Shown one piece after another: positions 25,413 to 48,229 of a stretch of 64,000 bases of DNA (positions within the stretch are counted from its first letter, which is position 1; the number at the start of each line of letters is the position of its first letter). A program made the translations under genes and the position numbers. This DNA is from a virus. The stretch covers positions 48,575 through 112,574 of IMG/VR virus record IMGVR_UViG_3300024270_000013; one strand, given 5' to 3'. The notes under the pieces were generated by a model. It was given only the letters and a program-made list of their open reading frames with translations, did not search any database and was not told the origin of the DNA.

Positions 25413-26873
25413 TTGGCTAATTATGTAAAATTTAGACGAGGTACAACTGAAGCTTTTAAAGCATTACCAAAAGATCAGCTTGAATTAGATACTTTGTATT
25501 TTATTTATGATAATGATGCTTCAACAGCTGATTTGTATTTAGGTTCTAAGTTAATTTCAAGCGGTGCCAATGATGAATCTATTGGTGCTACTTCATTAGC
25601 TAAATTAAGCGACGTTGTTATCAATGCAGGTCTTGCTAATAAAGATCTATTGATTTATGATCCTTCCGCAGGCACTAATGGCGCTTGGGTAAATAAGCCT
25701 TTAGCAGAAGCCATTAGCGTTATGATTGGAGCTAATTCAACTTCTGATGGACAAGCTGGTCTTGTTCCAGCCCCCGCCGCCGGAGATGTAAATCGCTATT
25801 TACGTAGTGATGGTAAATGGGTGGCCATTACAGCTCAAGTGTTTGAGTTAGAGAATGTTGATAATGTTGATCATATTGAATTAATTGGTAGCAACACTAC
25901 TGGAAAGACTTTGGCAATTGGCGACATAGCAATCGTTAAAGATATTATTGTCGAAGGTAATTATCAACATACTGCCTACGTTTATGACGGTTTAGAATGG
26001 GCGGCGATGGATGGTAATTATAATGCTGAAAATGTCTACTTTGATGAAGATTTTATTTTCACTAAAGCATTAGGCACTGTAACCATTCCTTCTTCTGGTA
26101 GTACCACTGTAAAAGCAGCAGGCAAAAATTTGAAAGAATTTTTTGCAGGCTTATTCGCAGCTGAGCAGAATCCATCCGCTACTAAACCTAGTGCATCTAT
26201 TGCTTTGTAGAGTGCTGCTAGTGTTGAGGCTGGAACTTCCTATGAGCCAAGTTATGCTATTACTTTTAGTAAAGGCAAATATACTTATGGCCCTGACACA
26301 GGTATTACTGCAACATATGCTGTAACCGACACCAATGGTGGATCTAATGATGTGGCATCTGGTAAATTATCTACTTTTATTGTAGATGATACTACTGAGT
26401 ATAAAATCAGTGCTACTGTTAGCTATACTGAGGGTGCTGTTCCTGTTTCCAATTTAGGAAATCCAGTAGAAAGTAAAAAGATTGCGGCCGGCACTATTGA
26501 TTTAGTTACTGATGCAGTAAAAGGTTATCGCAATGCTTTCTATGGAACTTTGACTGAAAAGAATACTTTAACTTCTGATATTATCAGAGGTTTAAATAAA
26601 ACTAATGCCGATGTAACTGCAGGTTCAGTTATGACTGTTAATATTCCAGTAGGAACAATGAGAGTTGTTATTGCTTATGAAGCAACTATTCAAGATTTAA
26701 CAAGTGTTTTGGATAAGAACGACTCTAACGCGAATATTGTATCTGGTTTTGGCGAACCTCAAATTATTGCAGTTGAAGGCGCAGATCATCACAGCGCTAT
26801 TGATTATAAGGTTTATGTAATGGATTTTGCAAATCCTTACGATGCAGCAAATGTATTTACTGCTACTATTTAA
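25413..26873 (+). CDS. Tail-fibre protein, about 486 aa, with the conserved phage-fibre N-terminal motif. One TAG read through.
   Basis: Probable TTG start 7 nt after GAAGGGAGAG. The N-terminus MANYVKFRRGTTEAFKAL…DTLYFIYDNDASTADLYLG resembles the conserved tail-fibre/HylP-type N-terminal domain. Pieces 25413-26210 and 26352-26873 are in the same frame and separated by TAG 26208-26210. Confidence 0.6.
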
Positions 26874-26890
26874 TAAGGAGGTAAAGATTT

Positions 26891-28249
26891 ATGGCTATGA
26901 ACTTTGGTAAGGGCAATCGCTCTGTAGCTTTTAATCCTACTTCCGCTTTCCCTCTTGATGCACGAAGCTATTTTGAAAGTTATGATGCTGCGCTTAGTGC
27001 TGCAGCATTGGCAAAAGAGGTTGGAAGCTCTGAGTCTGTTTATTATTATGGTCAGACTTTAGTAGTAGTTGAAGATAATAAAGCTACTTTATATGTAATT
27101 CAGCCCGATAATAGTTTAGCTCCTATTGCGGGGGAGTCTGTAGAAGAGTTCGTTTTAGTTATTGATGATAAAGCTTTTGTAGTTGATTCTGAAACTGGCG
27201 AACTAAGTTTAAAGGGATTAGAAGGAGCGGCCGCAGGTACGGTATTAACTGTTGCATCTGATGGCTCAATCTCTTGGAAAGCTCCTGTTGATGCTTATAC
27301 TAAGGCTGAAACCGACGCGAAGATTGCGGCAGCTGCTCATTTAAAGAGAAAGATTGTTGGTAGTGTAGCAGATATTGAACAGTATATGGCTGAAAATGCT
27401 GATGCTGAACAATATATTTTTATGGTACCTGCCGATGAAATTTTTGATACTGATAAGTATGATGAGTATATGGTTGTCACCATTGCTGGTACTCAAGTGG
27501 TTGAAAAAGTTGGTTCTTGGGAAGTCGATTTAACTGATTATGCTAAGAAGAGTGACTTAAACAAAAAGGTTGATAAAGCGGATGGTGAACGTTTAATTAC
27601 AGCTGCTGAAGCTGAAAAATTAGAAGCTGTTAATGTAAATGCAGAAAAAAATATTATCAATTCTGTATCTAATGATTTTGAAGTTGTTAGTGAAGAAGGT
27701 ATTGATAGACAATTAACTTTAAAACCTTTTACTATCAATAAAGTTACTGGGTTACAAGATACTTTAAATAGTAAGGTTGATAAGATCGAAGGTTGGACTT
27801 TATTAAGTCCTACTGATTAGGGAAAATTAGCAAAGCTAGTTATTGATGAAGAGACTGGTAATGTTGGTATTTCTGGTACAGTTAATGTTGAGAATGTTCA
27901 AGGCTTGGAGGATTGGTTAAATAAAAATGCTGCTACCACCCCTGGACTTTCTGAAAACAATTTAACTGATGAAATGTATAATAAGCTATTAGATGCTTTG
28001 TTTATTAAAACCGTTGACACTAATCAATTAAATGTTGAAGATGGTCATTTGTCTATTAAGGCAATTGATTATTCAAAAGTTACTGGTCTTGATGAGGTTT
28101 TAGCACTTAAAGCTGATGCTTCTACTGTCACTGCGGTGAGCAGTAAAGTAAGTGCTTTAGAAACTTCTATTAATGATCACGTATCCGCTGCTAATAATAG
28201 ATTTACAGCAATTGAAGATCGTTTAACTTGGCACGGATTAACTAATTAA
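26891..28249 (+). CDS. Tail-fibre/coiled-coil protein, about 452 aa. One TAG read through (27818-27820).
   Basis: RBS AAGGAGGTAAAGATTT-ATG. Pieces 26891-27820 and 27905-28249 are in the same frame. Ends at TAA. Confidence 0.6.
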
Positions 28250-28269
28250 TTTAAAAGGAGAGTAATATA

Positions 28270-30636
28270 ATGGCTAATTTGAATTTTAAATGGGGTTCTC
28301 ATGAAAATCTAGTCAAAATGACTACTTCTGAAGTTGGTGCAATTTATTTCACTAAAGATGAGGGCTCTTTATATTTAGGCGTAGACGCAGAAAAAGCTCC
28401 TAAGAGAATTCAAGGTGTTGTTCAGTTCTATGAAAGTACTACTGCTTTTGCTGAAGCAACTAAGCCACCTTATTCTACTGATGTAATTTATTACATTGCG
28501 GATCAGGGTGCTTTAATCCGTTGGGATGATTCTACAGATAAGTTCTTGGTTATTAACGTTACTGCAGCAGAATTTACTGCTAAATCTGCTGAATTGTCTG
28601 GCAACATTACTGCTAATGCTAATGCTATTAGTGGTTTGCGCGGCGAAGTTGGTACCAAGGAAACTGACGAAAAAGCTGCTTTTGTATGGTTGAGAGATTT
28701 GCAAGATGCTGTCGATGCATTAAATGAATTAACAGGTCTAGGAAGTGGCGAAGGCGCCTCTTTGACTGAGCAGTTAAATACTTTAGTTGGCCGCTTAGAT
28801 GATGAAGGTGGTTTGGTTGACCGTATTGAAGCTTTAGAGTCTTGGAAAACTGATGCTGCTACTGATATCTTAGATCATGAGGGTCGTGTTACTACATTAG
28901 AAACCAACATGGGCACTCGTGCTGAAGGTGAGGCTGCTGTTTATCCTTGGTTAAATAGCTTACAGGATAGTGTAGACGACCATGAGACTCGTTTGGACGC
29001 TATTGATGGTGAAAACGGTAGCATCGCTACTGCTAATAGTCGCATTGATGGCTTGGCTTCTAGAACTACTGCAGTAGAAAATAAAGCAAACACTAATGCT
29101 GAGGATATTGTTAAGTTAAAGGCTGCTGATACCACTACTAATGCAGCTATTGAGGCTTTGCAGGGAGAAGATGGCTTGGCTGGCGTAAAGAGTCGTTTGA
29201 CTCCTTTGGAAACTGCCAAGACTGATCATGAAACTAGAATTCAAAAGTTAGAGAATGCTGATACCGAGATTAAAGCTGATGTAAAAGCAATTAATGATGA
29301 ATTACCAACTATTAGACAAGATATTTTAAATGCTGCCAATTCTGCAGCTGCTGCTAATGGTGCGATTGGTGATGCCAATACCGCAGGTACAGTAAAATAT
29401 GATATTGCTCAATTACAAGCAAAAGACACTTTAGTTGATGCTGATATCGAAGCTTTAGAAGGCCGAGTACAAGCTAATGAAAATGCTATTGGTAATGATG
29501 AAAAAGCTGATAGTATTAAGGGCCGTTTGAAGGCTACTGAGACTGTTGCAAATCAAGCTAAGGCTGATATTGTTACTATTAATAACACTTTAAGCGGCAA
29601 GGCTGATCAAAGTACTGTTAATGGTTTGAGTACTAAGGTTGGTAATTTAGAAACTGCCGTTGGTGCTCCAAAGTCTGGAAGCACTGCTGCTTCTGGTTTA
29701 TATGCAGAGACTGCTAACAATGCTGCTGCTATTGATTTAATTAATCAAAATATTGGCACTAAGGGCACTGCTGGTTCTACTGTTTATGGTGCTATTAAAG
29801 AAGTCGATGAAAAGACTCTTGCAAATGCTAATGAGATTAGCGCAGTAAGTGGTGTTGCTGATGGTGCTGCTGCTAAAGCCGCTGCCAATGAGGGCGCAAT
29901 CAATGATATCAATGATGAAATTGATGCTTTGAAGAAAGTGGATTCTGATCAGGCTACTACTAATGCTAATGTAGAATCTCGTTTAAGTACTGCTGAGGGT
30001 ACTATTAAGACTCATGGTACTGATATTCTTGCTTTGCAGAATGCTGCTTCTACTTATGCTAAGCAGGCTGATCTTGATAAAGAAATTGAAGATCGCGAAG
30101 CTGCTGATACTCAATTAAGAACTGATTTAAATGCTGAAATTGAAAGAAAAATTAATGCAGCTAATTCTTTAACTTATATTGATGGTATTTCTACTGCTGA
30201 TGAGTGGGATGCTGTAAAAGTAAAAGATGCTCATATTGGTGACACTTATGTTGTTGCTGAATCTAATTTAGCTTTAAATCTGGATTTGGACAATAATTCT
30301 AGTACTGCTGCAGTAAAGTGCTATGCTGGTGATTTGTTAATTGCCACTGCTAAAGAAGACGCTGTTGAAACTGAGGGTGTTTTGGCCGCTGCTGATATTG
30401 AGTGGGTCCATGTTCAGTCTGGTTATAAGGCAGAATTGCAGGGTAAGTTGAGTGTAGCTGATGTTGCTGGTACAGCTTCTGCCAATATTAACTTAACTTC
30501 TTTGAATGGTAATGGTACTGCAGGTGACTTAGGTCAGATTACTGTGACTTCTGCTTCTTCTAATTTGACTATTGAGGCTTCTGGCAACACTATGACCATT
30601 AATATGGTTTGGGATAGTTTTGATCCAGCTACTTAA
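28270..30636 (+). CDS. Tail-fibre protein (788 aa) with a fibre N-terminal motif and a long Ala-rich coiled-coil shaft. No TAG.
   Basis: Intact 788-aa ORF. N-terminus …NFKWGS…VGAIYFTKDEGSLYLGV. RBS AAAAGGAGAG. Terminator downstream. Confidence 0.8.
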   Translation: MANLNFKWGSHENLVKMTTSEVGAIYFTKDEGSLYLGVDAEKAPKRIQGVVQFYESTTAFAEATKPPYSTDVIYYIADQGALIRWDDSTDKFLVINVTAAEFTAKSAELSGNITANANAISGLRGEVGTKETDEKAAFVWLRDLQDAVDALNELTGLGSGEGASLTEQLNTLVGRLDDEGGLVDRIEALESWKTDAATDILDHEGRVTTLETNMGTRAEGEAAVYPWLNSLQDSVDDHETRLDAIDGENGSIATANSRIDGLASRTTAVENKANTNAEDIVKLKAADTTTNAAIEALQGEDGLAGVKSRLTPLETAKTDHETRIQKLENADTEIKADVKAINDELPTIRQDILNAANSAAAANGAIGDANTAGTVKYDIAQLQAKDTLVDADIEALEGRVQANENAIGNDEKADSIKGRLKATETVANQAKADIVTINNTLSGKADQSTVNGLSTKVGNLETAVGAPKSGSTAASGLYAETANNAAAIDLINQNIGTKGTAGSTVYGAIKEVDEKTLANANEISAVSGVADGAAAKAAANEGAINDINDEIDALKKVDSDQATTNANVESRLSTAEGTIKTHGTDILALQNAASTYAKQADLDKEIEDREAADTQLRTDLNAEIERKINAANSLTYIDGISTADEWDAVKVKDAHIGDTYVVAESNLALNLDLDNNSSTAAVKCYAGDLLIATAKEDAVETEGVLAAADIEWVHVQSGYKAELQGKLSVADVAGTASANINLTSLNGNGTAGDLGQITVTSASSNLTIEASGNTMTINMVWDSFDPAT

Positions 30637-30786: not shown

Positions 30787-33700
30787 ATGAATACACCTTT
30801 CATTCCTATTTAGGGTAAGCGTGATACTATTCAAGCATAGGCAATTATTGAAGGTAATTTATATTTTGCTACTGACACTGGTGAAATGTTTTTGGATACC
30901 GCGAGTGAGCGTATTCCAGTTGGTGGTGGTGGAGTTTCTGTTCTATATGCAACTGCCGCAAGTGTTAGTCAAGATTTAACTGATTTAAGTTATATCATTT
31001 ATTTTGCTGATTTAGAAGATCAAGACGCTTCTCCTAAAAAAGACGACTTAATTATCAATTCTAATGGTACTTTCTATAAAGTTCGTTCTTATAATAAAAG
31101 TGCTGGTATTTTGAAATGTAGTCGTATTGCTGTTAGTGGAACTGGCGGCGGAGGGGGTTCTGGTGGTGGCGGCGGTGGAGACACTGGCGATGGTAAATAT
31201 GTAGAATTGGCTTGTGAAGGTACTGCTCCCAATGCGCAAACCTACATTTTTGAATAGCCATAGTTTATACATTTTTCTGTCGGTGCTTCACATGATTCTG
31301 TTTTAATTTTAAATTATCATGTTACCAATGTCGCAACAGAACAATCTAACACTTATTCCTTTTCTGTCCGTTCAGGAGAAACTCATAATTTTGATCTGGG
31401 TAGTGTGCTTGGTAAAGGTTAGAATACATTAGTCGTAGAGGCAATTGGTAGCAACTCTGGTACCAATCAACTACAATATGGTTCAATTTCTTGTATTGAA
31501 TTAGCATTAAAAGAAAGTTCTAATTTCAATCCTTTAAAATATGCCTATAACTCTGATATGAGTTTTCATTTTATTCCAGTAGGCACAGTAAAGAAAAGAT
31601 TAAATGTATATATTGATGATGTTTTGGAAGAGAGCGCCTGTAAGGATTTACTTGCAACAGATAATGAACAATCTATGTCTGTAACTATTCCAAAAAAGAA
31701 ACATGGTGTTTACACATTGAAGGCTGAGTTAACTTATAATACTGGTGTTACCACTATTGCAACAAAACCTTTGATTTATCAAATTGTCTTTTTGGAACCT
31801 AATAATGATGCTCCTGTTATTTGGTTTAATAATGTCCCAGAGAAAATTACTAACCATGATAAACTAAATATCCAATATATGGTTTATGATCCAGCATCTC
31901 CTGATCGTACTTCAATTCGTAGATGGATTAATAATAATGAGATTGCTAGCTTGGATAATATCGCTCATAGTGAAACTACCTGGTTAAATTGGAATATTTC
32001 CAATTATGAGGTGGGCGAAAATACATTTACTTTAATGTGTGGCACTACCTCTGCTAGCGTATCTTTGTATGTAGAAGAAGATGAATTACGAGATTTAGAT
32101 ATTTTAACTAGTGATTTATATTTAAATCTAACTTCTGTTGGTAGAAGTAATTCAGAAAACGAGACTGAACGCCAAACCTGGTTCTTTGAACGTAGTGATG
32201 GAACAAAGTCTGTTGTTAAGTTTAATAATTTTAACTGGTATAACAATGGTTGGGTTAATGATTTGGCTACTGGGGATTCAGTATTAAGAATTAGTAATGG
32301 TGCTTCCATTGAAATTCCTGTTAGTGTTATGAATACTCGTGATTTGGATACTAACTTAACTTTTGAAATTCAATTCAAATTAAGAAATGTCCAAAAGTAT
32401 GAAAATTTAATTGAGGTTACTTCTGAGGAAATTAAAGACGCAGAAGGCAATACTGTAGAAGTTAAAGTTACTAAAACTGTTAAATCTACTGACGGTGTAT
32501 GGTGCAATTATTATGATAATGAAATTGGCATGTGCTTAGGAACTCAAGAAGGTTTCTTTAAATCTAAGCAGGTTATTGCTTCTGGTCGTTATAAAGAAGA
32601 CGAAATTTTAACTGTAAGTTTTGTTGCTGAAAAAGCTGCTGCAACCAATCAATATCCTTTGATTTATATGTATATTAATGGCATTATGAGTTCTATTATT
32701 AATTATGATAAAACTAGTGATTCTTTTGCTAGTGGCGTAAAAACTTTAGTAATTAACTCAAATTATTGTGATGTTGATTTATATAAAGTTCGTATTTATT
32801 AGGCTGCTTTATCAAGCGCTGATGTGGTTCATAATTATATTGCCGATCAAAATAGCGCTGAGCTATATGATATGAACCAAATTATTGAATTTAAAGATAA
32901 TATCCCATCAATTAGTTATACTAAGATGAGAGATTATAATGATGCACATCCAGAAAGTCCATTATAGGCTTATGCAGTGTTGGAATGTGTAGATAAAACC
33001 GAGGATTTATTACCTTATATTAAAGGTGGTAAAAAGAAAGTTAATGTAACTTTCGTCAACCCTTCTTTGGATTATGCCTATAAAAATAAATTAATTACTG
33101 GTGCGCAATACTTAATGGGATGTCCTAGTTATACAGCTACTAATATTGAGTTTGACGTTCAAGGAACATCTTCTCAAGGTTATCCTCGTCGTAATTATAA
33201 AGGTAAATTCAAGAAGAAGGATGATAATTCTTGGAAATATACTGATGGCCCTCTTGCAGGTAAAGAAATCGGTGAAAAGAACGAGTATGAAGGAGTAGAG
33301 TATAAAGGATTCTATATGGATAATCATTACTCTGAAACTACATTTACTTGGAAAGCCGATTATATGGAAAGTTCTATGACTCATAATACGGGCTATGCTA
33401 GTTTTGTTAAGACTTTATATAGTAAACATCCTTTGCAAGATTATGATCCTGATATTGATGTAACTGATCGCCGCACTACGGTTTATGGTTTCCCAATGAT
33501 TGTTTTCCAAAAGAAAGCAGATGGCAGCTATGAATTTATTGGTCGTTACAATTATAATCTTGATAAAGGTTGTAATAATGTTATTGGATTTGAAGATGAA
33601 ACTGCTCATCCTTATGTTGAAGGCAAAACTTTTAAAGATGTTGCTGAATGCTGGGAGCTACTAAATAACCAAGGCGGCCGCACATCATTTACAGTCACTA

Positions 33701-36700
33701 ATTTTGATGAAGTAGATGATGAGGGTAAATTGGCTGTATTAAATGATTTTGAATATCGTTATCACGTTGATGAAGATGATATTGATGACGCTCTGGATAA
33801 GAAAAATGATTTTGCTAATAAAACTTAGACTGAAATTAACACTTTCTTATTGAGTAAATATGATAACCTACGTAAAGTGGCTGAGTGGTTAGAATCTACC
33901 AATTCTTTGGCACCAACCAATGAACCTATTGAACCTTATACTGCTGGTGGTTAGACTTATACGACAGACAGTGCTGAATATCGTTTAGCCAAGTTTGCTA
34001 ATGAATTTGATAAATGGTTTGATTAGGAATATTGTGCAATCTATTTTATTATGACTGAAATGTTACTATTATATGACTCTCGTGGTAAGAATATGATGTT
34101 GGCTACATGGGGACCTCAAGAGGTCGGTGGTAATTATATCTGGTATCCTATCTTCTACGATATTGATACTCAATTAGGTGTTAATAATTCAGGTGTACCT
34201 TCTTGGGAATATGATGTCGAACCATCTCCTATTGTTAATACCGAAGGTGGTATTTTCTCTACCGCAGGTAGTGTATTGTGGTATAATTTTGAAAAATGTT
34301 TCTTAGATACTGCAAAATCTTACTATCAAGATATTCGCAAGAATGGCTTAAAATATGAAAAATTAAAAGGTTATTATGACTATGATGCCAATGTAAGTGG
34401 ATCTTACGCTATGATGGGTCATCGTCCCGTTAATATTATTAATGTTGATCAATATTGGAAATATATTGCTCCTACTTTTAGTGGTTACATTAATACTAGT
34501 GGCACTATATCTAAAGATGAGGGTAAGCGCTTCTATTGTTTATAGGGTAGTCGTCAATTACATCGAGATTTATTCTTGAGAAATAGATTTAATTATATTG
34601 ATAGTAAATGGTTGGGAGATACTTATGCTTATGAGGGCGCAGTTTCTCAATTACAGATTCGTTGTAATGCCAACTATGGTGGTACTTCTGATAAATACTT
34701 AAATCGAGAGATTACTGCTGAAGATACAGGTTTTGAACAATATACTTATCCACATCCACTTGATGCGGATTTAACTTTTGAAGTTACTCCATATTTACAA
34801 TAGTACAATTCTTTATGGTTTGATAAAACTATGATGACATTCCCACAGAAGTGGGATGGAAAAAATCCAAATAAATTACAACTAACTGCGGAAAAACAAA
34901 CTGCTGTTGAAACTTATAAAGGTTTAACTCAACAGTTATTCTATATTGGCGGTGGCGAATACATTTCTTCTCTTGGAGATTTGAGTTTAAAGTATCCTGA
35001 TGAATTGTATTTAACTGCTTTAAAGCGCTTAAGAGACGTACGCGTGGGTAATGATACTCCTGGTTTTTATAATGGTATTTTAAAAGTCTTTACTTTAGGT
35101 GCTAGTGCTTTAAATCCAGATGGTACTCCTAACGAGAATACAAAAGCTCTACTTGAGCAAGTAATTTTAACCAATGTTCAATCTTTAACTGGCGCTATTG
35201 ATGTTACTGGTGCAGAAAAATTAAAAGAGTTCCGTGCTCTTGGAACAACTATTACTGGTGTATCATTTGCGGACGGTGGTCAAATGGAGATTGTACACTT
35301 GCCTAATACAATCGCACACTTGACATTTATTGAGCCAATTAAATTAAAAGGTTTAATTCAAGGTGAGAGCGATTGGAAAGATGCTAAGGGTAATTTTGTA
35401 CCTGGTCTTTATATTCCTGGTATCACTTCCACAGGTAATTTAAATGCTTCTACTGGTATTGAAAAATTGCAAGTTGTTGGCGGCAATATGGGATATAGTT
35501 CTTATCAATTAATGAAAAATTTAGTTGATATTAAGAAAACTATGCAGACCTCTGCTGAATTTACCAATGCTCAAAAGAATATTTCTATAGCATTAGAAAA
35601 AGTTTTATGGTCTCCTTATAAATTAGTTGAATCTGGAGTAGCTAAAAATAATGAGAAATCTTATGTTTTAAAAACTGAGAATTCTACATTTGTTCCTTAT
35701 ACTCCCACAGATGCTGATTGGGATCAAAATACATTAAATGCTTTGGTATATGAAGTATTGCCTGATGCTTTAAATGATCAAGATTGCTTAACTGATTTAA
35801 GTTTAATTAACTTATTTATTGGCGAAGAGAATTTGGCAAATCGTGATACTAACTATTTTAGAGATATTACTGAATATGGTGATGACCGTCCAACTTATCC
35901 ATATTTATCTGGTGATATTTTTATTAATAACCCAAGTACTTCAAAAATTTCTGAATTTGAAATTAAATAGATTATGGATACTTATTATCCCGATTTAAAT
36001 ATTTTTGTTGCGAATGTTGATCCTGCATATACTCTAAAAATGGTTGAAATTGTTACTGATGCAGAGGCAGGTACAAAACAAACTATTGAATTGCAATCTG
36101 TAAAGTATGATAAGAGTTCAACTACTCCTATTAAAGTGACAGATATTAAAGCAAATCCGTCTAGACTACATCACTACTTTAAGGGTTGGAGCCTAACTGA
36201 AGATGGAGAAGTTTTAAGTAATGAAGAAATTGAAGCTTTAACATTTAGCACCTCTAAAATGACTCATATTTTATATGCAGTATTTGATTGGGATAGCTAC
36301 ACTGCAACATTCTATAATGGTGATGTTGAATTGGGAGAAAAGCCAACAGTCATTTATGGTCAATATTTCTATGAGCCTGCTGAAGTACCAAGTAGAGAGG
36401 CGGATGAAGAATCATTGCCATTAACAGAGCGTTTGGCATTCTATGGCTGGTCTGATAAATATCAAACTAACCCTGTGGCGCCTTCTGAGGAGGCGGCCGC
36501 CAAGTTGGTAATTGATGTAACGGCAGTAAAAGCCATTGAAAATAGAAACTTCTATGCTGTCTTTGTTCAAGAGAATGTTTATAGTAAAGCAACTGATGAA
36601 AAATATTTTGAATTTATTGGACCTGTTACTGTAAATAACGTAGAAGGTTATTAGATTAGAACAAGTAGTGCCTATGATTTAAAGGGTAAAATTACTATTC

Positions 36701-37464
36701 CTGCAACCCATAATGGCTTACCTATTGTTTCTATGGGATATTTTACTAGCGCTTTAAGAGCTACTGGTATTTTCTTTATGGATAACATTTTCTTCTATGA
36801 AGTTGGTACTGAGGCATTTAAAACTGATATGCATAGCGCTGATATTAAATTAAAAGGTGTATATTTACCAGAGTCAGTTATGTATATTAGAGACAGTGCT
36901 TTTAATGGTGTTCAAGGATTGGAACATGTAAGTGAGCAATATGCGAAAGATGGTATCGTAGGACATTTGAGTGATAATCTTGTGTATATTGGAACGCGTG
37001 CTTTCTATAACACTAAGGCTCTATATGTTGCCAATTTACCTTCTAAATTGACTATTGTAAAAGATAGTAGCTTCTATGGAGCAGGAAAGAATGTAACATT
37101 ATCTGCCTTACCAGATAATATTACAAAAATAGAAATGGCAGCATTCATGCAATGTCCTAATATTCAAATTACGAATTTTGGTAAGCAAGCTAATGAAATT
37201 GGATCCTCTTCTGGATTAAGTTATATTGGTACTTATGCTTTCGCTAATGCGGGTTTAACTGGTGCTCATTCTTCTATTAAGAGTATCTTTATTTGGGATA
37301 CTGTTACATCCATTGAAGCAAATGCTTTTATGTCTTATGGATCTAATATAACTGCCTATACTTCATTTGCAGAAGCTCCTACTGGATGGACAGATGTTGC
37401 AATTAACGGCCCCTCTGCTCTTGGATTGGCTAATATTGAGTATAATTATACTGGGGAGGTATAA
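30787..37464 (+). CDS. Giant tail fibre/adhesin, about 2225 aa, with a C-terminal BspA-type leucine-rich repeat domain. Many TAG read through.
   Basis: RBS GAGAGAAAGGAGA. N-terminal fibre motif …AIIEGNLYFATDTGEMFLDT. There is a Gly-rich linker (GGGGSGGGGGGDTGDG). Eight ORF-track pieces (30886, 31558, 32977, 34051, 34576, 34831, 35974, 36733) are in frame 1 and each junction was read as TAG. The C-terminal 240 aa show BspA-like LRR repeats (IRDSAFNG…IGTRAFYN…IVKDSSFYGA…IEMAAFMQC…IGTYAFANA…IEANAFMSY). Ends at TAA 37462-37464. Confidence 0.65.
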
Positions 37465-37467: not shown

Positions 37468-37680
37468 ATGACAAAATAGAAATTATATAAATATATCGGC
37501 TATAATGGAACTATTACTTCACCAGTCTTATTGCCTGGAATTGATCATTTGGAATTAATTGAGCTTCGAGCTGATGGCGATAAATATTTAACAGATGGAG
37601 AGCGTAAAGTGTCTTCCATTGTTGTTCCTGCCGATGAAGTCGATAATTGGACCGAAGAAGTTCGGGGTATTGTTGACTAA
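37468..37680 (+). CDS. Small hypothetical protein, about 70 aa, with TAG at codon 4.
   Basis: ATG 37468 preceded by GGGGAGG; ends at TAA 37678-37680. Preferred over the antisense ORF 37514-37816 on the minus strand because of operon orientation and the downstream terminator. Confidence 0.35.
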
Positions 37681-37760: not shown

Positions 37761-39671
37761 GTGGTTACTATTTTGAATAAAAATTCATCCGTTGAACTAT
37801 GGGAAAAATATGCCAAGTTATTTTCTAAGGCTTATGATGATTTAGTAAAATTAGGCAAGGTCGAGGCGGGCGGTCGTTTTACCAGTTTGGATCAATATTT
37901 TGCCCATATGGGTGATTTATTAGAAACTAATAAGCCAATGTATATGTTGTTACCTTTGGATGAAGCACCTTTCGCTGTTAATGCAAATGCAAGATCTGTT
38001 ACTATTCCTGCTGAGTTCGCTAAATGTGGCGCCGTTAAAGGAGATAATTATTGCGAGATTGCTACTTTTGTAATTGACAGATATTTTGATTATAAGGATT
38101 TGGCAGAAGCTAATATTGCTATTCAATGGGTGAATGCCAACAATGAAGAAGGTATTTCTCATATCCAATTAATTGATTTAGAAAGTGAAGAAGGTAAAAT
38201 CCGTTTCGGTTGGCCTTTAGTTGAGAATATTACTAAATATCCTGGCCCAATTAAATTCGCTATTCGTTTCTTTGTTCCAAGTGAAACGGAAGCTAATAAA
38301 TTTGATTATTTGTTAAACACTTTACCAGCTACTTTAACAGTTAAGGATGGCTTAAATGTTATTAATCCTAAGCATATTCATGAGAATGATTATAATGAAT
38401 TTAAGTCTTTTGTTAAAAACAGTCAAAATCCTGCTTATATTACTCCTGTATCCCCATTTTTTACAGAAGTAAATGGTGGCATTGATTTGGATAAATATGC
38501 TGCTATTGATCTTGACACAAATGAACTTAAATTTGAAGCTTAGGCCGTAACTTCTGATTTAGGCGATATTACTTATAAGTGGTTCTACATTCCTTCTGGC
38601 TCTACTGAAAAGCGAGAGGTTGTTGGTGGAGACGGAGTTTATGAAGTGAAATTAACTGACTATGTTAAAGTTGATTTAATCACCGATGAAAACGGTGTAG
38701 TTACTAACAAAAAAGGTTTAGATAAGTATTGGGTAAAAACTGGTAGTGATGAAGCTGCAAGTTATACTCTATATACTGGTGATTGGCCACCTGCCGCAGA
38801 TGCAGAACTATATGAAATTGTCACGTCTTTATCTTTTGAAGATAGCGAAGTTGATGTAGTTGGTGAGTATTGGGTTGAAGCGGTAAATACCATTGGTACT
38901 AACTCTGTAAATCCTGTTCCCAGCACTCATTGTATCGTTCCTGCTCCAAATGCTATGGTTTATACAAAAGATTTAAAAGCTCATGAGTTCGCAGTAGCCC
39001 CTGCCGCAGGCCAAGCTCCTAAGGCAGATTTAGCAATTGAATTAAAAGCAGATGGTAATAATCCTACTATCACCTACGCCTGGTATAAGAGCACTGCTGG
39101 TGCAGATGGCGATTTCGGTGAAGCTATCCCTGGAGCAGAAAGCGCCACTTATAGTGCTGCTGAGGCAGGCTGGTATAAAGTTGTTCCCGTTGCTCGTTTA
39201 AATCGTAAGATTGAAAGTGAAGAAAGTAATATTTGTAAAGTTACTATGCTGCCTGCTGAACCCGTTATTCAGAAAATGTCTTATAAATTAGAAACTGCAA
39301 CTGATTATACAGAATTACCATCATTGGCGGATGGCGGTACTATGTTTGATGTATATAAGTTCGGTAACATTATTAATTTAAAAGTTGAAACTGATTTAGA
39401 TAACGCTGCTGAATTAGGACTTTTATCTGAAGGTTTAACTTATGTTTGGTATGTTCAAGAACCTGATACCAACCCTCGTCAATTAACTGCCAAAGATATT
39501 GGCTCTAATACTTTATTAGAAGTTGGAACTAATTTAAATAGTGGCGAAATTAAAGTTCGATGCGTTGCTGATGGTGCTAAATATACTTATTTTTGCGATA
39601 TTATTAATACTATTCAGGGAGCAACTGCCAAAGTAAAGAGTTCTTCTTATAATACATTTACTATTGCTTAA
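37761..39671 (+). CDS. Structural protein, about 636 aa. One TAG read through at 38541-38543. Its N-terminal domain is a paralogue of the next gene.
   Basis: GTG start after GAAAGGAAGG. Pieces 37761-38543 and 38646-39671 are in the same frame. Ends at TAA. Confidence 0.6.
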
Positions 39672-40310: not shown

Positions 40311-40315
40311 TTTAC

Positions 40316-40445: not shown

Positions 40446-42647
40446 ATGGCTACAGATTTAAAATTAAAAACTGGTACCATTAGTAATTATAATAATATTA
40501 CTACAAAAGAAGATGGTACCATTTATTTTGCGACTGACACTGATGGTCGTGCTTATATATATTTAAATGGAAATAATATTGTGCCAAAGTTAGCTGATCT
40601 TCGCAATGGTGGATTGGGTGTTGATTTAACAAATGCCGCGGCTTATTCAGTTCTTCTGCGCGGTAATGGTAGTTACGATACTACTTATGCAGCTCCCACT
40701 TCTGGTGCATTTTATACTGATTCTACAAGCAATAAGCCAAAATTTGGTATATTACCCGTCGCTTAGGGTGGTAGTGGCGTAACATCTATTCCTAAAGGTG
40801 CAATTCTATATGGTAATGTTTCTAGTACGACAGGAGCAATTTCTACATTATCTCCGACTACCAATGGTTATATTCTTGTATCTACTGGCGCAAATAAAGC
40901 TCCAGCTTATGTAAAACCAACAATGAGTTGGACTAATGGTTCTACTGCAGGACCTATTTTTAATTTTACATTTAATACTAAAGAAGGTGCTGAAGTAAAA
41001 TTTGCTGGCGTTGCAATTCCAAAAGCTAGTGATTCTATTTCTGGTATTGTTACTACTGATGGACAAACATTTACCGGCGAAAAAACATTTATGAGCACAA
41101 CATATGCTTCTAGCATTTATCCTAGAACAAGCGGTAGTTATAGCTTAGGTTATTATACTAGCTCTAGTGATTATAAGCTTTGGAATTAGATTCATGTTTA
41201 GCATTTAAATGTCTATGGGGCAGAAAATAAATTAATTATATAGTCTAGTGAAACTGAAACAAATATCAGCTATGAAGATAAAGGAAACGCTATTCTAACT
41301 ATTGGTAATACTGGAGATGGAACTTCTCTAGGTGATAAGGATGGTATGCTAAGATTAGCATATGGAACAGGCTATGCTTCATTATCTGCTGTTGGCACTG
41401 GTACGTATACATTGCCAAGTAGCGGTGGTATGATTATGGTACGAACCGGTGAAGTCAATAATACAACTGCTCAAACTTGGTATATTCCATTTTAGACCTC
41501 TATGTCGGTATTTGACGCGGCTTATGGCTACAATGATGGATTTAGATTATATCATTAGAATGGTACTACCTCGACGACTGCGGGAAAATCTTATTTATAT
41601 TTAGGTAATAGCACTAAAGTCGGTCTTGCAGGGAATAAGGAAGGTCGTATTTTATTATACGGAGATAATACTGGATCAACTACTATTCGTCCAAATTAGT
41701 CCAATAGCACTTCAACATACACCGTATCTTTACCAGCAGCTTCTGGTGAATTAGTTTATCATACTGAAAATTCCGCACAAGGTGGTTCTGGTCGACTAAT
41801 TTCTGTATCTGCGGCTGGTCAAGTTGTTGCAGATACTACAACTGATATCGCTAGCGATATTAAGTTAATGTATTTGAAAGATGGTTTATTAACTGCCTCT
41901 GCCGCAACCAAAGGTTCTGGCGTTAAATTAATACATTTGTCTAGCGGTGCGATTACTGAATCAACTTCTGATGTCGCCTCAGGCACTGAACTGATATATT
42001 TAGCTAGTGGTACATTAACCAAATCTACTTCAGGAGTTGCTGGTTCAAAGCAACTAATGTATTTAGCTAGTGGTAAATTAACTGCTTCTGATGCAAATGA
42101 GGGTAATGGAACAAGACCTGTTTATTTATTAGATGGTGTTATTACTGCTTCTACTAGTAGTGTTGCCACCAGTACTCAATTAATGTATATGAGTAATGGT
42201 ACTCTTACTCCATCTACTGCTAATGTCGGTAGCGCAACACAACCTGTTTATTTACTTGATGGTGTGGTAACTGCGGCTGGCGCTTACTCGTCTCTATTGA
42301 CCGCATTCAGTGGTGCTGATAGTGCAAGTGATAATACAATGTCTATTACTGTGGGTGGTACCACAGATACGGCCACTATCATTGGCGGAGTGTCTAATAC
42401 TTGGACAAATGGCACTACAAATGGTCCCACTTTAAGCACTACCGTTAATGGTATTACTGGTACTGCAGCGTAGATTCCAAATGCTTCTTATAGTTATTCC
42501 GGTGCAGTAACTACAAGTACATAGACATTTAAAGGTGTAAAAACTTTTGGTGATGGTATGAAAGTTTCTGCTGCTGGTTCTACTACTGACTGTGCGACAT
42601 TTACTTATGATGCAAGTACAGATACTTTAACTATTAGTTTCCCTTAA
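40446..42647 (+). CDS. Tail fibre, about 733 aa, with the fibre N-terminal motif and internal tandem ~20-aa repeats. TAG read through.
   Basis: RBS GAGGAAAGGAGAACA. N-terminus MATDLKLKTGTISNYNNITTKEDGTIYFATDTDGRAYIYLNG. Pieces 40446, 40923 and 41868 are in frame 0 and separated only by TAG. Ends at TAA 42645-42647. Confidence 0.65.
41880..42290 (+). repeat. Coding tandem repeats, about 6 units of roughly 20 aa, inside the fibre gene.
   Basis: KLIHLSSGAITESTSDVASG / TELIYLASGTLTKSTSGVAGS / KQLMYLASGKLTASDANEGNG / TRPVYLLDGVITASTSSVATS / TQLMYMSNGTLTPSTANVGSA / TQPVYLLDGVVTAAG. Confidence 0.6.
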
Positions 42648-44318: not shown

Positions 44319-44741
44319 ATGGAAATTATTGCTAATGCTGTATAGACTGTCCCAGCAAATCAAAATGTTTATTTCACAGACACCGTTATTTGTGGCAATA
44401 TGTCCATAGGTCATAGAGACGATTCTGGTTTGGTGACTCTTCGCGGAGTCACCAACTCCCAGTGCCGCGCTCGTTTTATGGTGACTTTTGGCGGCAATAT
44501 TGCTGTTCCCACAGATGGAACTGTCGGCCCAATCTCTTTGGCTATTGCTATTGATGGTGAGCCCGTTCCTGCTACTACTATGATTATTACCCCCGCCGCA
44601 GTTGAACAGTTCTTCAATGTGAAGTCAAGTGTATTTATTGACGTTCCTCGCGGATGTTGCGTTAGTGTTAGCGTGAAGAATACATCTACTGACGCAGTAG
44701 TTGTTCAAAATGCGAACTTAATTGTTACTCGTGAAGCATAA
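44319..44741 (+). CDS. Hypothetical beta-rich protein, about 140 aa. Possibly a jelly-roll/TNF-like fold resembling exosporium BclA/ExsF-type C-terminal domains. One TAG at codon 9.
   Basis: RBS AAGGAGGTCTGATTT-ATG. Alternating beta-strand pattern …VPTDGTVGPISLAIAIDGEPVP…VFIDVPRGCCVSVSVKN…NANLIVT. The resemblance is from memory and is not verified. Confidence 0.55.
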
Positions 44742-44755
44742 GGAGGGGTGACTGT

Positions 44756-45394
44756 ATGAGCCATGAAAAATTAAAATGGATGAAAGATTCATTAATTTGT
44801 GTAGTTGAAAATCAATTATGTAACCTTAGCGAAGTAGATACCGAAGAGCTTGGAGAAGCTATTGATATGATTAAGGATTTGGAAGAAGCTATCTACTATT
44901 GCACTGTTACTGAAGCGATGAATCATCAAGGCAAAGAAATGAAAATGAAAAATGGCGACCATCATCAGAAGCCTGAGGATGATCGCATGTATTATAGTGG
45001 TGGCTATCCTGCAATGTATGCGGATGGCGGTCGTAATCGTCGCGCAGATGGCACTTTCTATGCCGATGGTGGTCAGAATCATATGGGTGGTACCCAGAAT
45101 TACGCTGATTCTGGCGACATGAGTGGTACTAATAGTTCCAATGGTCGTAACTACTATGACGGGCCTATGTGGCGCGACGAGCGCGAAGGCCGCAGTTACA
45201 ATAGTCGCAGAATGTATATGGAAGCCAAGGAAATGAAACGAGATAAAGCTTCTCAATTACGTGAATTGGAGAAGTATATGCAGGAGTTGTCTCAAGACAT
45301 TACTGAAATGATTGCAGATGCCTCTCCAGAAGAAAAGCAGTATCTTGAGAAGAAAATTACCGCACTGGCTTCTAAGATCGGTCAGATGAAATGA
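44756..45394 (+). CDS. Low-complexity Gly/Asn/Tyr/Arg-rich protein (212 aa) flanked by helical ends. No TAG.
   Basis: RBS AAGGAGGGGTGACTGT-ATG. The central region …YYSGGYPAMYADGGRNRRADGTFYADGGQNHMGGTQNYADSGDMSG… is low complexity. Ends at TGA in an ATGA overlap with the next gene. Confidence 0.65.
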   Translation: MSHEKLKWMKDSLICVVENQLCNLSEVDTEELGEAIDMIKDLEEAIYYCTVTEAMNHQGKEMKMKNGDHHQKPEDDRMYYSGGYPAMYADGGRNRRADGTFYADGGQNHMGGTQNYADSGDMSGTNSSNGRNYYDGPMWRDEREGRSYNSRRMYMEAKEMKRDKASQLRELEKYMQELSQDITEMIADASPEEKQYLEKKITALASKIGQMK

Positions 45395-45702
45395 TTATCA
45401 ATGGAGTTGTCTGGCGAGTCCGATTGGTCTCGCCAGCACATCCTTTGTTACTAACTCCGTGGAAAACTCATGCTCTTGGAGTCTGTGATAAAGTCACTCA
45501 GACTATTTGCGTTGATAAGACCCTTTCCCCTCAACTTTTAAAAGAGGTCTTATGTCACGAAATCGTACACGCATTTATGTATAGTTACATGATTGACTTG
45601 TCCTATAGCGAGGAAGAGTTAGTGGCAGAATTGATGTCATAGTATGGAGAGGATATATTGTTAGAAACGAATGCAATTTATAATGGAATCAAAATGAAAT
45701 AA
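45391..45702 (+). CDS. Small HExxH protein, about 103 aa; putative zinc metallopeptidase-like. One TAG read through at 45640-45642.
   Basis: Motif LCHEIVHAF. The frame continues past the TAG for 20 codons to TAA 45700-45702. Confidence 0.45.
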
Positions 45703-45704
45703 AA

Positions 45705-45750
45705 AAAGGCTAGTTATGATTAATTTCATAACTAGCCTTTATTTTTTTTA
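45705..45750. terminator. Bidirectional rho-independent terminator
   Basis: GGCTAGTTATGATTAATTTCATAACTAGCC hairpin flanked by an A-run upstream and a T-run downstream. It serves convergent genes on both strands. Confidence 0.7.
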
Positions 45751-46329
45751 TGATGAAGGCACCCACGATGAGCCATTCCAAACATAGGGCATTGCCTATA
45801 TCCATGATGAACCATTCCAAATATAGGGAATTGCACTAACCCAAGAAGAACCATTCCAAATACGTACAGCTCCTGCGTCGCTCACTGATCCTCCATAATA
45901 TGAAGTTCCCCAAGTACCGGCGCACAAAACAGCAGTACTCCAATTGGGTATTCTAAATGTCATTTGTACATATACAGTTGCTCCTGGATTAACTAAAACA
46001 ATATCATTAAAAGTCCATTCACATTTTTTCATATTGTCATAAGTGGAATTATAACTAATATTATTTATTGTAATTTCACTAGAGCTAACAGTTTTACCTG
46101 TACTATCCGTAATGGAAGCTGTGATATAATATGTATTACCATTACCTGTCATACCTCCATATGTGCCGCTACCAGTACTAAAATACATAAAACAACTATT
46201 AATTTTTACTGGCTTGCCAGTGTCATTGTAATAGACAATCATTTGTCCACGAGTGGTAGAACCGGCTGCGGGAACCCAATAACTAAAATTACAACCGTGA
46301 CCTTCGGTGCTTACAATAGACCATCCCAT
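45748..46329 (-). CDS. Tail-fibre-like/receptor-binding-like protein on the opposite strand, about 193 aa, with C-terminal WNGSSW repeats. One TAG read through.
   Basis: Own RBS AAGGAGG before ATG 46329. C-terminus …VRIWNGSSWVSAIPYIWNGSSWI[TAG]AMPYVWNGSSWVPSS, ending at TAA. Confidence 0.55.
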
Positions 46330-46492
46330 AGATATCTTTCCTCCTTTTTCTCATTTTATCTATATAGATATAAAAAATCTAAATAAATTATTATTATATT
46401 TTGGCCTAAAATAAGAAAGAATAATAATAAAAAATTTAATATTATATAGAAATATAACTCTTTTTATTTTGAGAGAAAGGAGATTTTAATAT

Positions 46493-48229
46493 ATGGGAAC
46501 TTTGAAAGTTAATGGTAGTGTAAATATTTAGGATTTACTTACTTTAAAAAGTGGCACAGATGCTTACACCACACCTTCTATTGCTTTTGGAACTGATGTA
46601 CGAATTGGTTGTGGTTCAAAAAATTTTGGTATTTATTCCAGTAATAAAATTTATTTTAGACCAAACAATGGAACTTTAGGCTATTCTGATGGCATTGAAC
46701 TTTCTACTACATCGTTAATTCCTACAAAAAATAACACCGTTACATTAGGTGATTCAACGCATAAGTGGTCTAGTATATATGCAACTACATTTCATGGAAA
46801 TTTAAGTGGTAATGCTGATACTGCAAGCAGATTGCTTAATAAATACAATATTAGTGGTGATAGCCATAGCTTAGCCTTAAAAGCCGCATTTGATACTTAT
46901 AAAAATTCAACCCCAAAAGATGAGTTCTTAACATATTATTCTTCAGCTTATAATAATGGTAGTATGTATATGGGATATTTTATTAGCGGATATGATTCCA
47001 CTCCGTATGGAGGCTTTTATGTAGCTCATTATAATACTCCTTATTATGTTGGTATCTAGTATGGTAATTATGAACAATAGACTATATTAACTAGCTCTAA
47101 TTATGCGTCTTGGTGCGCCCCTGCATCACATACACATAGCTATTTACCATTAAGCGGAGGTACATTAACTGGAGCTGCAGCGATTAATTTTCCAGCGGGG
47201 TCAGTATCTGTTTCCGCAAGCACTCCAATGTCTTTATCTTACGGAAGATTAGCTTGTTATGGTACTTTATATATTAACGCAAATACTGATAATAGTGGAG
47301 ATGAATATGTCGTCATTACTGCGGGAAAGGGATTAAGTTCTTCTAATAGTGATGGTTTGGCTATCGGCTCTTCTAGCCTTACTTGGTAGGGATCTACTGT
47401 TTTAACCACCGGTAATTTTCCATCTTCAAGTTCTTTGGCTCGGTAGACAGACATGTGGATTAGTGCAGCTAGTTTGGATGTAAATACTTATTATCCAGTA
47501 GTAATTTCTTTACCAGCAAATGGTTTAAATAGAATTAAATTGGCAGTACAATTAAATAGTAGTACAAGACCTTCTTGGAGTACGCACAATAGAGGATTTA
47601 CTTCTAATATTGATGTAGAAATTATTTAGGCAGGATGGGGAACAGTTAGTCCATTTAGATATTTACTTCGTCAAGATGATTATAGCTTTGCTAATGTGAA
47701 ACCTGCTTATTTTGCGGGACAATTAAGTAATGCAAGTTTAGCTGTTTTTTATGTACGGGGTGGAGGATCTTATAGATTTATTTGTGACTGGGCAGATGCA
47801 TCTATATCGTTGAGAACGTCATCAACAGATTATAATGGATAGACAGTGGCACCTACAACGAGCACTTCTGTATTCCATAGCGGATCTAAGTCTCATTTGT
47901 ATTGTAATGTTGATTATGCTTCAGGCGCAGGTAATGCTGATACCTTGGATGGAAACCATGCTTCTGCTTTTGCATTAGCTTCTCATTCTCATTCATATCT
48001 TCCGCTGAGTGGTGGTACAATGAGTGGAACTATTATTACCCCTGGTAATGATAGTTCTGTTATTCGACCACCTAAAAGTAATTATGATCAAATTGGAGCT
48101 TCTGACTATTTATTTTGGAAGATGTTCGCTACATACGGTTATTTTAACTATGTTGTTACAACAAATTATGGTACTAGTGCTCCAACATCAACTTCTTTAC
48201 CTGTCGGTACTATTTATTATAAAATTTAA
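46493..48229 (+). CDS. Tail fibre/receptor-binding protein, about 578 aa. TAG read through.
   Basis: RBS GAGAGAAAGGAGA. Pieces 46832-47059 and 47846-48229 are in the same frame. Fibre-type motif WSSIYATTFHGNLSGNADTA. Ends at TAA. Confidence 0.6.

Follow-up and report, generated by a model that had tools for sequence, protein, structure and literature searches.

How does a large gut phage arrange several fibre genes that all begin alike? The question is raised by a stretch of viral DNA of 64,000 nt (positions 48,575-112,574 of IMGVR_UViG_3300024270_000013, hereafter the window; all coordinates below are window positions), in which four genes open with a common N-terminal motif and one of them encodes a protein of 2225 residues. 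An original prediction, made from the letters alone, took the motif to be the conserved phage-fibre attachment domain and proposed that several fibres dock with it to the same baseplate site. The four genes belong to a ~24-kb module, probably of the distal tail (host adhesion), 24190-48229, which lies between the gene of the Tal-like tail-tip protein and the divergent replication genes, at the end of the late operon. Our analysis suggests that the phage is probably a large siphovirus of the anaerobic gut, SPbeta-like and with TAG recoded to Gln, and that the module encodes a fixed set of different, co-assembled fibres.

In the standard code, the region is shredded, and the ORFs at 30886-37464 all share one frame with TAG as the only separator. 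The full frame, 30787-37464, holds 14 in-frame TAG codons and zero TAA or TGA before its end. Upon TAG readthrough, the long ORFs of the window add up to 21,732 aa instead of 12,952 aa, and a compact late operon emerges on the + strand at 1-48229; beyond 48291 lie early and replication genes on the minus strand, which contain few TAG. At 84 TAG sites aligned to standard-code orthologues, Gln was the most enriched residue (16.9% versus 2.9% background), followed by Glu, Lys, and Arg, and this enrichment points to TAG-to-Gln (code 15) as the appropriate translation for the window. The pattern by which TAG-to-Gln recoded phages are recognized, with TAG concentrated in late genes and Gln at the aligned positions of relatives, was thus found here.

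Read with TAG as Gln, four genes begin with a common motif of ~45-50 aa (iE, independent E value for the motif in the hidden Markov model (HMM) search described below; LRR, leucine-rich repeat):

25413..26873, + strand: fibre type 1, 486 aa, TTG start, 1 TAG; iE 4e-14; N terminus MANYVKFRRGT..DTLYFIYDN..ADLYLGSKLI, then an exchangeable body whose C-terminal part corresponds to phrog_35541; orthologues in 41 loci
28270..30636, + strand: fibre type 2, 788 aa, zero TAG; iE 8e-15; N terminus MANLNFKWGS..GAIYFTKDEGSLYLG, then a long coiled-coil-like shaft rich in Ala, Asn, and Thr; P0012 is an N-terminal orthologue
30787..37464, + strand: giant type 3 protein, 2225 aa, 14 in-frame TAG; N terminus ..FIPIQGKR..GNLYFATDTGEMFLDT; a single ORF with fibre domain, linker, beta-rich region, CotH-fold core, Flg_new region, and LRR end
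40446..42647, + strand: fibre type 4, 733 aa, 9 TAG; iE 4e-15; N terminus ..LKLKTGT..GTIYFATDTDGRAYIYLNG, then a Ser/Thr/Gly-rich shaft with ~17-aa repeats

The similarity of the first 60 residues was evaluated by local alignment scores against 500 composition-preserving shuffles. The pairwise scores among 28270, 30787, and 40446 were above all 500 shuffles (z = 8.4, 8.3, and 4.7), and 25413 was weaker, with z = 3.0-3.5 against 28270 and 40446 and only z = 0.8 against 30787. The motif was not shared by 26891, 46493, 24537, or 39693 in the same comparison. An HMM trained on 41 clade sequences, which included the four N termini of the window, was run over both strands of the whole window and retrieved exactly these four genes (iE 4e-14 to 5e-16), the next best match having an iE of 0.17. 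Independent support came from a profile built from the four window sequences alone, which retrieved N-terminal motifs in nearly all related loci. In addition, all four genes have a Shine-Dalgarno (SD) sequence at the proper distance, and the motif therefore lies at their true N termini. Overall, the claim that the four genes share one N-terminal motif was borne out by the shuffles and by the specificity of the HMM.

To place the four genes in their clade, we used 49 related IMG/VR loci retrieved with Tal and four loci (L050, L052, L055, and L056) that span the whole module. Each related locus carries two to four consecutive motif-led genes 3' of Tal, with the signatures YVKF.RGT...DTLYFI....LYLG.KLI for type 1 (25413-like), FKLGTQ...G.FYLTSDT.RLYIG for type 2 (28270-like), and FRP.RGT...GY.YFATDTG.IYLD..ER..MGG for type 3 (the giant). 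The four complete loci are syntenic with the window, in the order Dit-like protein, Tal, ~116-aa protein, 'MSFYG' protein, type 1, (body), type 2, giant, ~70-aa protein, ~600-700-aa protein, ~205-aa protein, and further fibre(s). Mean scores of N-terminal similarity within the three types were 129, 68, and 127, compared with 27-45 between types, indicating that the types are ancient paralogues with type-specific N termini. Together with the co-occurrence of the types in a fixed order, this favours distinct co-assembled components over alternatives for one site.

The bodies behind these N termini behave differently from one another. Comparison of fibre gene content among relatives, proposed in the original prediction as a way to detect cassette exchange, indeed revealed module shuffling along with unequal rates of evolution. 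In L050, a type 1 N terminus is fused to a 26891-like body in a protein of 588 aa, whereas in the window 26891 is a separate gene without the motif; modules have thus been shuffled, with the N-terminal unit as the conserved head and the bodies as the exchangeable part. The 25413 protein is 76% identical in L055 and 83% in L056, and only its aa 1-160 are conserved in L050 and L052. Type 2 is fast-evolving (48% in L055, 32% in L056, then only the ends in L050 and L052). Likewise, 40446 evolves quickly (48% in L055 and 35% in L056), and its orthologues in L050 and L052 are weak, with a degenerate or absent N terminus.

The profile of the four sequences was also searched against 5.8 billion proteins and matched only fragments of 39-91 aa, which are truncated N termini of recoded relatives. 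A HMMER search of 1.84 billion representatives retrieved 1,462 clusters at E ≤ 0.001, including 355 at E ≤ 1e-10. In 146 of the 150 best family members, which are 60-755 aa long, the unit starts no later than residue 10. Judged from these searches, the motif is a member of a large, poorly annotated family and is nearly always N-terminal. Exceptions exist: P0151 has three tandem N-terminal copies, and P0185 has seven dispersed copies, one of them at the extreme C terminus. Because tandem, internal, and C-terminal copies occur elsewhere, a role in baseplate docking is not proven for the motif.

Comparisons with known families gave weak links to Phage_tail_C and Mtd_N at the sequence level. Pfam PF24243 (Phage_tail_C), a 26-position 'phage tail tip domain', matched an orthologue fragment of 25413, P0020, at 28.2 bits against a cut-off of 23.7, and P0010 reached 23.2 bits; 11 of the 41 diverse clade sequences were matched at E ≤ 1, the best at 8e-9. 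The first half of the motif (VKF.RGT..aY..L...d.DTLYFI) fits this model. However, PF24243 is taken to be C-terminal from its name and from the FibU match described next, whereas the window unit is N-terminal. The best match of the motif among PDB sequences was the last 26 residues of FibU (gp68, 6v8i) of phage 80alpha, with E = 0.03; the FibU C terminus is unresolved in the structure, and FibU is anchored via its N-terminal BppU-like Ig domain (PMC7048315). Mtd_N (PF18454) matched two of the 41 clade sequences (best E = 0.004, which we rate below significance) and none of the window's own sequences, and, unlike the Mtd protein of Bordetella phage BPP-1 (N-terminal domain, 1yu0), the window shows neither a diversity-generating retroelement (DGR) nor a C-type lectin body. 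The Pfam Collagen_trimer family matched one of the 41 sequences weakly (E = 0.03). A single N terminus searched against PDB sequences gave chance matches only, and the designed 'Cake/Scone' propellers at the top of the PDB search with the motif profile were rejected, their score being the sum of many 2-3-bit repeats.

The predicted structure of the N-terminal unit of the giant (pLDDT 85.5) has a beta-alpha-beta-beta-beta arrangement at aa 1-50. Its superposition on the trimerization domains of collagen XV/XVIII (3n3f and 3hsh) covers 44-48 columns at 1.9-2.4 Å. A solved domain at the N terminus of the K1 lyase tailspike of Klebsiella phage NTUH-K2044-K1-1 forms a triangular prism in the trimer (PMC8822698). 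The predicted unit resembles this tailspike domain in fold, and the fold would thus be already known from one tailspike. Similarly to the tailspike and human collagen XV/XVIII domains, it is predicted to consist of a small beta-sheet with one short helix, and in the tailspike this domain occupies the extreme N terminus of a trimeric receptor-binding protein. However, sequence similarity to these domains is undetectable beyond the one weak Collagen_trimer match, and only a monomer was predicted here. Moreover, in contrast to the K1 lyase, several paralogous fibres begin with the unit here, and the giant continues it with a beta-domain and a flexible poly-Gly linker (aa ~117-133). From these models, it is plausible that the unit is a portable trimer-nucleating element that forms the proximal knob of the fibres and has an N-terminal docking role.

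The giant protein itself combines several recognizable regions:

30787..31137, + strand: N-terminal domain, aa 1-117, made of the motif unit (aa 1-50) and a small beta-domain (aa 50-117)
32884..34383, + strand: CotH-kinase-like core, aa ~700-1199, with the invariant YDSRGKN (D1097, K1101, N1102) and IW(1119)YPIFYD(1125)ID(1127)TQLG
36112..36558, + strand: putative Flg_new (Listeria-Bacteroides repeat) region, aa ~1776-1924, assigned via orthologues
36760..37335, + strand: BspA-type LRR region, aa ~1992-2183

The 2225-aa gene with a BspA-like LRR end, as originally predicted, was confirmed. LRR_5 (PF13306) matches aa 2061-2183 with 85.5 bits against a gathering cut-off of 27.7 (E = 3.7e-24), and the nearest solved structures in the PDB, down to E = 3e-23 with the profile of the giant family, are LRR surface proteins, namely 4gt6 (E = 3e-23), 4fs7, 4fd0, TpLRR (6mlx), and PcpA (4cp6). 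The LRR_5 repeats are like those in BspA-type proteins of gut and oral bacteria; however, those proteins are on the bacterial surface, whereas here the repeats make up the C-terminal ~230 residues of a phage late protein. The giant had also been described as exceptionally large. Its size stands, but it is no exception, since more than 300 clusters of full-length orthologues of 2100-2540 aa exist on contigs of up to ~200 kb, forming a clade-wide family. The protein is conserved end to end (78, 68, 66, and 37% identity in L055, L056, L050, and L052), above its neighbouring fibres, and the family alignment contains dozens of invariant residues at aa ~450-1300. In a Pfam census of 18 diverse orthologues, LRR_5 was found in 15, Flg_new in five (best E = 2.8e-8), CotH in four, and Laminin_G_3 and CBM_4_9 in one each.

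The CotH-kinase-fold core was missed by the original prediction. A model of aa 700-1330 was confident for the first ~420 residues of the segment, and a Foldseek search of the core against the PDB returned only the Bacillus cereus CotH structures 5jda (E = 5.6e-5) and 5jd9 (E = 2e-4) as significant, with probability 1.0; the next match had E ~0.9. Pfam CotH (PF08757, cut-off 23.8 bits) did not match the window giant or the 99%-identical P0031 at E ≤ 0.01, and it exceeded the cut-off in the orthologues P0093 (41.7 bits), P0123 (28.9), and P0131 (25.9). These orthologue matches map to aa 1059-1199 of the window protein, the block that carries the invariant YDSRGKN and IW(Y/F)PI(F/Y)YD(I/V)DTQLG. 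In B. subtilis CotH, D228 and D251 are needed for activity and W245 stacks on the adenine (10.1101/469122). Here, D1097, W1119, D1125, and D1127 are family-invariant, and W1119 and D1125 are six residues apart, as are W245 and D251. At the sequence level, no CotH protein was retrieved by the core profile from the PDB, and the whole-family profile gave LRR proteins only. As a residue-level alignment to a characterised CotH was unobtainable, this mapping of residues between the giant and CotH should be read as putative.

The giant thus appears to have a fold in common with the CotH kinases (5jda, 5jd9, and B. subtilis CotH), from whose crystal structures it differs at ~90% of positions (~10% identity). 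Fusions of CotH domains to C-type lectins have been reported in gut phages and called 'currently unstudied' (Benler et al. 2021, PMC8008677). In contrast to those proteins, the giant has its CotH core within ~2200 residues, with a fibre N-terminal domain and an LRR end, and neither a C-type lectin nor a DGR was seen. In the literature on CotH domains in phage tail or virion proteins, we found no description of a tail protein with both CotH and LRR. Its sequence and models are best explained if the giant is a conserved tail-tip adhesin/enzyme composed of several domains.

How, then, would the fibres be held together? According to the reading that we prefer, three paralogous types (25413-, 28270-, and 30787-like) and a fourth present here (40446) are each headed by the ~45-50-residue unit, whose most likely job would be to nucleate the fibre trimer and to form the proximal knob that holds that fibre in the tail tip. 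As the N-terminal signature of each type is retained throughout the clade, each type probably has its own partner or position. The original prediction differed in treating the motif as a baseplate-attachment domain through which all four fibres dock at one site, as alternatives or together, in a multi-receptor apparatus. A shared N-terminal module is real, but docking at the same site is quite improbable, given that the similarity within types is far above that between types, that every full-length relative keeps all types in fixed order, and that the unit also occurs at the distal C terminus of 80alpha FibU, which is attached by its N-terminal Ig domain, and in three to seven copies within single proteins. 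Calling it the conserved phage-fibre attachment domain was likewise an overstatement in view of the missing Pfam match, the C-terminal copy in FibU, the internal copies, and the trimerization-like predicted fold. These tandem, internal, and C-terminal copies and the predicted collagen-type fold would also suit a unit that is a folding or trimerization nucleus only, with the fibres held instead by the 116-, 205-, 636-, and 70-aa proteins or by fibre-to-fibre branching as in multi-tailspike phages; the small non-fibre proteins interleaved with the fibres are highly conserved, for example 39693 at 92, 87, 60, and 41%. We give this explanation little credence, because the unit is at the extreme N terminus, the usual anchoring end of phage fibres, in 146 of 150 best members, because type-specific conservation suggests partner-specific surfaces, and because the idea that the 205-aa and 636-aa proteins are BppU-like is unsupported by sequence.

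A different view of the giant, which we hold to be unlikely, is that it is not mainly a fibre or adhesin but a virion-borne or secreted active CotH-type kinase that modifies the host surface or an intracellular target, with the LRR and Flg_new regions as targeting modules. Its CotH fold, the invariant DSRGKN and W-x5-D-x-D over 18 diverse orthologues, the W-to-D spacing equal to that of W245 and D251, and the end-to-end conservation, unlike the fast-evolving neighbouring fibres, all speak for an enzyme; however, characterised CotH proteins are not alignable to it at residue level, an extracellular ATP supply is doubtful, and the protein has a fibre-type N terminus and an adhesin-type LRR end. 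CotH-family domains also serve as binding proteins, for example as invasins of Mucorales, which counts further against a kinase. In a more elaborate and similarly doubtful version, the kinase would be virion-borne and positioned at the surface by its Flg_new and BspA-LRR end, would phosphorylate a host envelope or protein target, and the shared unit would be a portable collagen-XVIII-like trimerization/anchoring cassette for mounting unrelated bodies. Hardly any credence is due to the notion that the four N termini resemble one another by composition or chance and that unrelated ORFs were joined into an artefactual giant. The low GC of the fibre region (33-39%, in a low-GC genome) and the fragmentation of the ORF in the standard code might suggest it, but it is refuted by the shuffles, the specificity of the HMM, the 1,462 homologous clusters, the single frame split by TAG only, and the full-length orthologues in standard-code relatives.

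The set of different co-assembled fibres that we prefer faces objections of its own. Pfam gave zero matches to the window's own N termini, even at E ≤ 10. The type-specific N termini could reflect co-evolution of each unit with its own shaft rather than different docking partners. For the giant, the core model is poor past segment residue ~420, and the CotH assignment consists of fold similarity (TM to target 0.52-0.53, 10% identity) plus Pfam matches in 4 of 18 orthologues. Furthermore, virion presence, trimer formation, and receptor binding of these proteins are deduced from sequences and models, as is the host. The data themselves show the gene structures, the recoding, how significant and how widespread the motif is, synteny, domain and fold assignments, and the patterns of conservation; trimerization, docking positions, virion location, and any catalytic activity are what we infer.

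Several fibres on one tail tip would not be without precedent. In the branched multi-tailspike phages CBA120 and G7C, several tailspikes are co-assembled on one tail tip. Likewise, 80alpha co-assembles its receptor-binding protein, FibL, and FibU on one tip, with conserved proximal and exchangeable distal parts (PMC7048315). However, the anchors in 80alpha, CBA120, and G7C are BppU-like Ig or XD domains, which were undetected here by Pfam and PDB profile searches, whereas this module has ~24 kb, three to four paralogous N-terminal domains, and a member of 2225 aa.

Large TAG-recoded phages of the human and animal gut are common but uncultured, and their annotation is usually wrong because their late genes are broken up by standard gene calling. 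The present analysis provides a usable gene map of a host-recognition module, in which the conserved scaffold, made up of the giant, the N-terminal units, and the 205-aa protein, can be told from fast-evolving exchangeable parts that likely set host range. The N-terminal unit, with its 1,462 representative clusters, offers a simple sequence handle for fibre genes in such genomes. In addition, the analysis exposes a large conserved protein family of a tail module in which a CotH-kinase fold is combined with adhesin-type repeats. If the CotH domain were active, it would represent an enzymatic activity of a kind new to phage adsorption machinery; if it were a virion-borne kinase, an enzyme that phosphorylates host targets would be part of the adsorption/infection machinery in large gut phages of a widespread clade.

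The remaining genes of the module, together with its upstream boundary, are as follows:

21729..24176, + strand: Tal-like tail-tip protein, 815 aa, 11 in-frame TAG, phrog_32343 and phrog_1887 'tail protein'; upstream boundary of the module; homologue of the final late gene in Enterococcus phage VRE9_2
24190..24540, + strand: conserved 116-aa protein, in 39 loci; fused to the Tal C terminus in L012-L014 and L044; 69% identical in L056
24537..25352, + strand: 271-aa coiled-coil protein with the conserved 'MSFYG' N terminus; weak coiled-coil-type Pfam matches only
26891..28249, + strand: fibre-body protein, 452 aa, without the motif; aa 121-450 homologous to the body of the L050 588-aa protein
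37468..37680, + strand: 70-aa protein, always 3' of the giant; 79, 64, 62, and 41% identical in L055, L056, L050, and L052 at the same position
37761..39671, + strand: ~636-aa protein with a probable GTG start, placed by alignment with orthologues; paralogous to 39693 in its N-terminal domain of ~170 aa
39693..40310, + strand: 205-aa protein, the most conserved gene of the module, with 92, 87, 60, and 41% identity in L055, L056, L050, and L052
42866..45702, + strand: six-gene block between fibre genes, GC 0.41-0.43 versus 0.33-0.35 in its neighbours, with uniform strong TAAGGAGG ribosome-binding sites
45748..46329, - strand: 193-aa orphan with a 39-nt tandem repeat (WNGSSW repeats)
46493..48229, + strand: 578-aa fibre-like late protein, 7 TAG, without the motif, phrog_10903; the last + gene before the divergent replication module

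The module begins at 24190, directly 3' of Tal, and not at 25413, where the original prediction had started. Orthologues of 24537 range from 494 to 1424 aa (the L052 copy being the longest) with a variable C-terminal part, and in L050 and L055 only the N-terminal ~130-147 aa are conserved. The 205-aa protein 39693 may be a structural scaffold for the fibres. No family matches were found for it or for 37761, with none in Pfam for 37761 and a best PDB match for the eight-sequence profile at E = 0.59 to unrelated proteins; a BppU-like reading of the two was rejected, since BppU_N and the solved N-terminal domains of BppU, FibL, and FibU were unmatched in Pfam and PDB profile searches. Three further genes had been proposed to be fibre-like. 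Two of them hold up in part: 26891 is a fibre body and 46493 is fibre-like, with short fibre motifs in common with L052 fibres and weak N-terminal similarity to a 528-aa gene at the same position in L056, although neither carries the motif. The third, 45748(-), showed zero fibre features and has a homologue in none of the related loci examined.

The six-gene block is inserted and does not encode fibres. L056 lacks it at this place, whereas its identities amount to 72-90% in L050 and to 40-66% in distant clade members. Its genes matched only PHROGs of unknown function and nothing informative in Pfam; of its products, one is HEIVH metallopeptidase-like and another has a transmembrane segment together with Gly- and Cys-rich regions. 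A search for flanking repeats, as expected of a mobile element, yielded none that was convincing. Between its end and the convergent 45748(-), an inverted repeat with 31-nt arms of 84% complementarity (45689-45756) is probably a bidirectional terminator.

The nearest cultured relatives of the phage were sought through DnaE and Tal. DnaE is closest to those of SPbeta-like Bacillus phages (39% over 99% of the length) and of ~140-kb Enterococcus phages (38%), and the closest counterparts of Tal are in these Enterococcus phages (28%, E ~1e-19) and in Phass-1. In the Enterococcus phage VRE9_2 (L057), a phrog_30026 protein and Tal are the last late genes, followed immediately by divergent RuvC, dUTPase, guanylate kinase, DNA polymerase (DnaE), helicase, and RecJ. 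This replication order is that of the window at 48798-63575 (-), in which nrdD and nrdG are added between dUTPase and guanylate kinase. The motif and homologues of window genes 24190-48229 are both absent from VRE9_2, and by comparison with this one cultured Enterococcus relative, the ~24-kb module is therefore a gut-clade-specific expansion at the end of the tail operon. As a set, the phAss-1/'code 15' phages (OQ749652), the SPbeta-like Bacillus phages, and the ~140-kb Enterococcus phages share with the window TAG-to-Gln late genes, a ~3100-aa tape measure, DnaE, and a homologous Tal. However, the motif and the fibre module are lacking in the regions of Phass-1 and VRE9_2 examined, and identities are 28-39%. 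Phass-1 was rejected as a close relative, as only its Tal, its counterparts of the 850-aa (Dit-like) and 1976-aa proteins, and its homologue of 292-1287 are distantly related. The GenBank annotation of Phass-1 is fragmented.

Regarding the host, the original prediction of a strictly anaerobic gut Firmicutes bacterium stands to the extent that nrdDG is present (NrdD E = 2e-126, NrdG E = 1e-38) and consistent with an anaerobic setting, and that a Bacillota host is plausible from sequence evidence. SD cores of at least 5 nt precede 27 of the 43 genes (63%), compared with 2.2% of random positions. SD-led initiation is largely lacking in Bacteroidota. The DnaE and Tal relatives, which infect Bacillota, point in the same direction as the SD usage, and the authors of the phAss-1 study tentatively named Clostridia as its host (PMC10607447). 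The sole contrary hint comes from tblastn, by which hypothetical proteins of Bacteroides phage p00 (23% identity) and of related temperate phages showed distant similarity to the giant core; a Bacteroides host was judged a weaker proposal than the one suggested by the DnaE and Tal relatives and SD usage.

No tRNA genes, and hence no suppressor tRNA, were found within the 64-kb window despite the heavily TAG-recoded late genes, a result that is uninformative for the whole phage as the window is only part of a genome of probably 130-200 kb. The TAG-decoding machinery must sit elsewhere in the genome or be absent. Contigs of relatives extend to 195-202 kb, and the clade mixes TAG-recoded and standard-code members. 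In L055 (ENA ERZ28633378 scaffold_81), the giant is 78% identical and has zero in-frame TAG, with only 8 across the 11 module genes checked, versus 14 in the window giant alone; the genetic code thus switches across a short evolutionary distance. A megablast search of 25000-48500 against annotated phages gave zero matches.

Upstream of the module and within the replication genes, four further features were recorded:

292-1287: virion protein, 331 aa, phrog_2729, homologous to the 538-aa protein termed 'structural tail protein' in Phass-1
3282-12650: tape-measure-like protein, 3122 aa, judged by its look
12770-18700: 1976-aa protein between the tape measure and the Dit-like protein, with fibre-like repeats in its C-terminal part
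60912-61802, - strand: Phage_lysozyme2 ('phage tail lysozyme') protein, E = 8e-22

The TAG-recoded phAss-1 group likewise has a ~3150-aa tape measure and a DnaE-type polymerase (PMC10607447). The Phass-1 homologue of 292-1287 sits downstream of Tal, whereas the window has its copy upstream of the tape measure, and the two groups thus differ by a rearrangement of their tail genes. The 1976-aa protein had no Pfam match and only PHROGs of unknown function, and because of its fibre-like repeats, the adhesion apparatus may reach upstream of 24190-48229. The Phage_lysozyme2 protein has a signal-peptide-like N terminus and is encoded in the early/replication module, outside the late operon.

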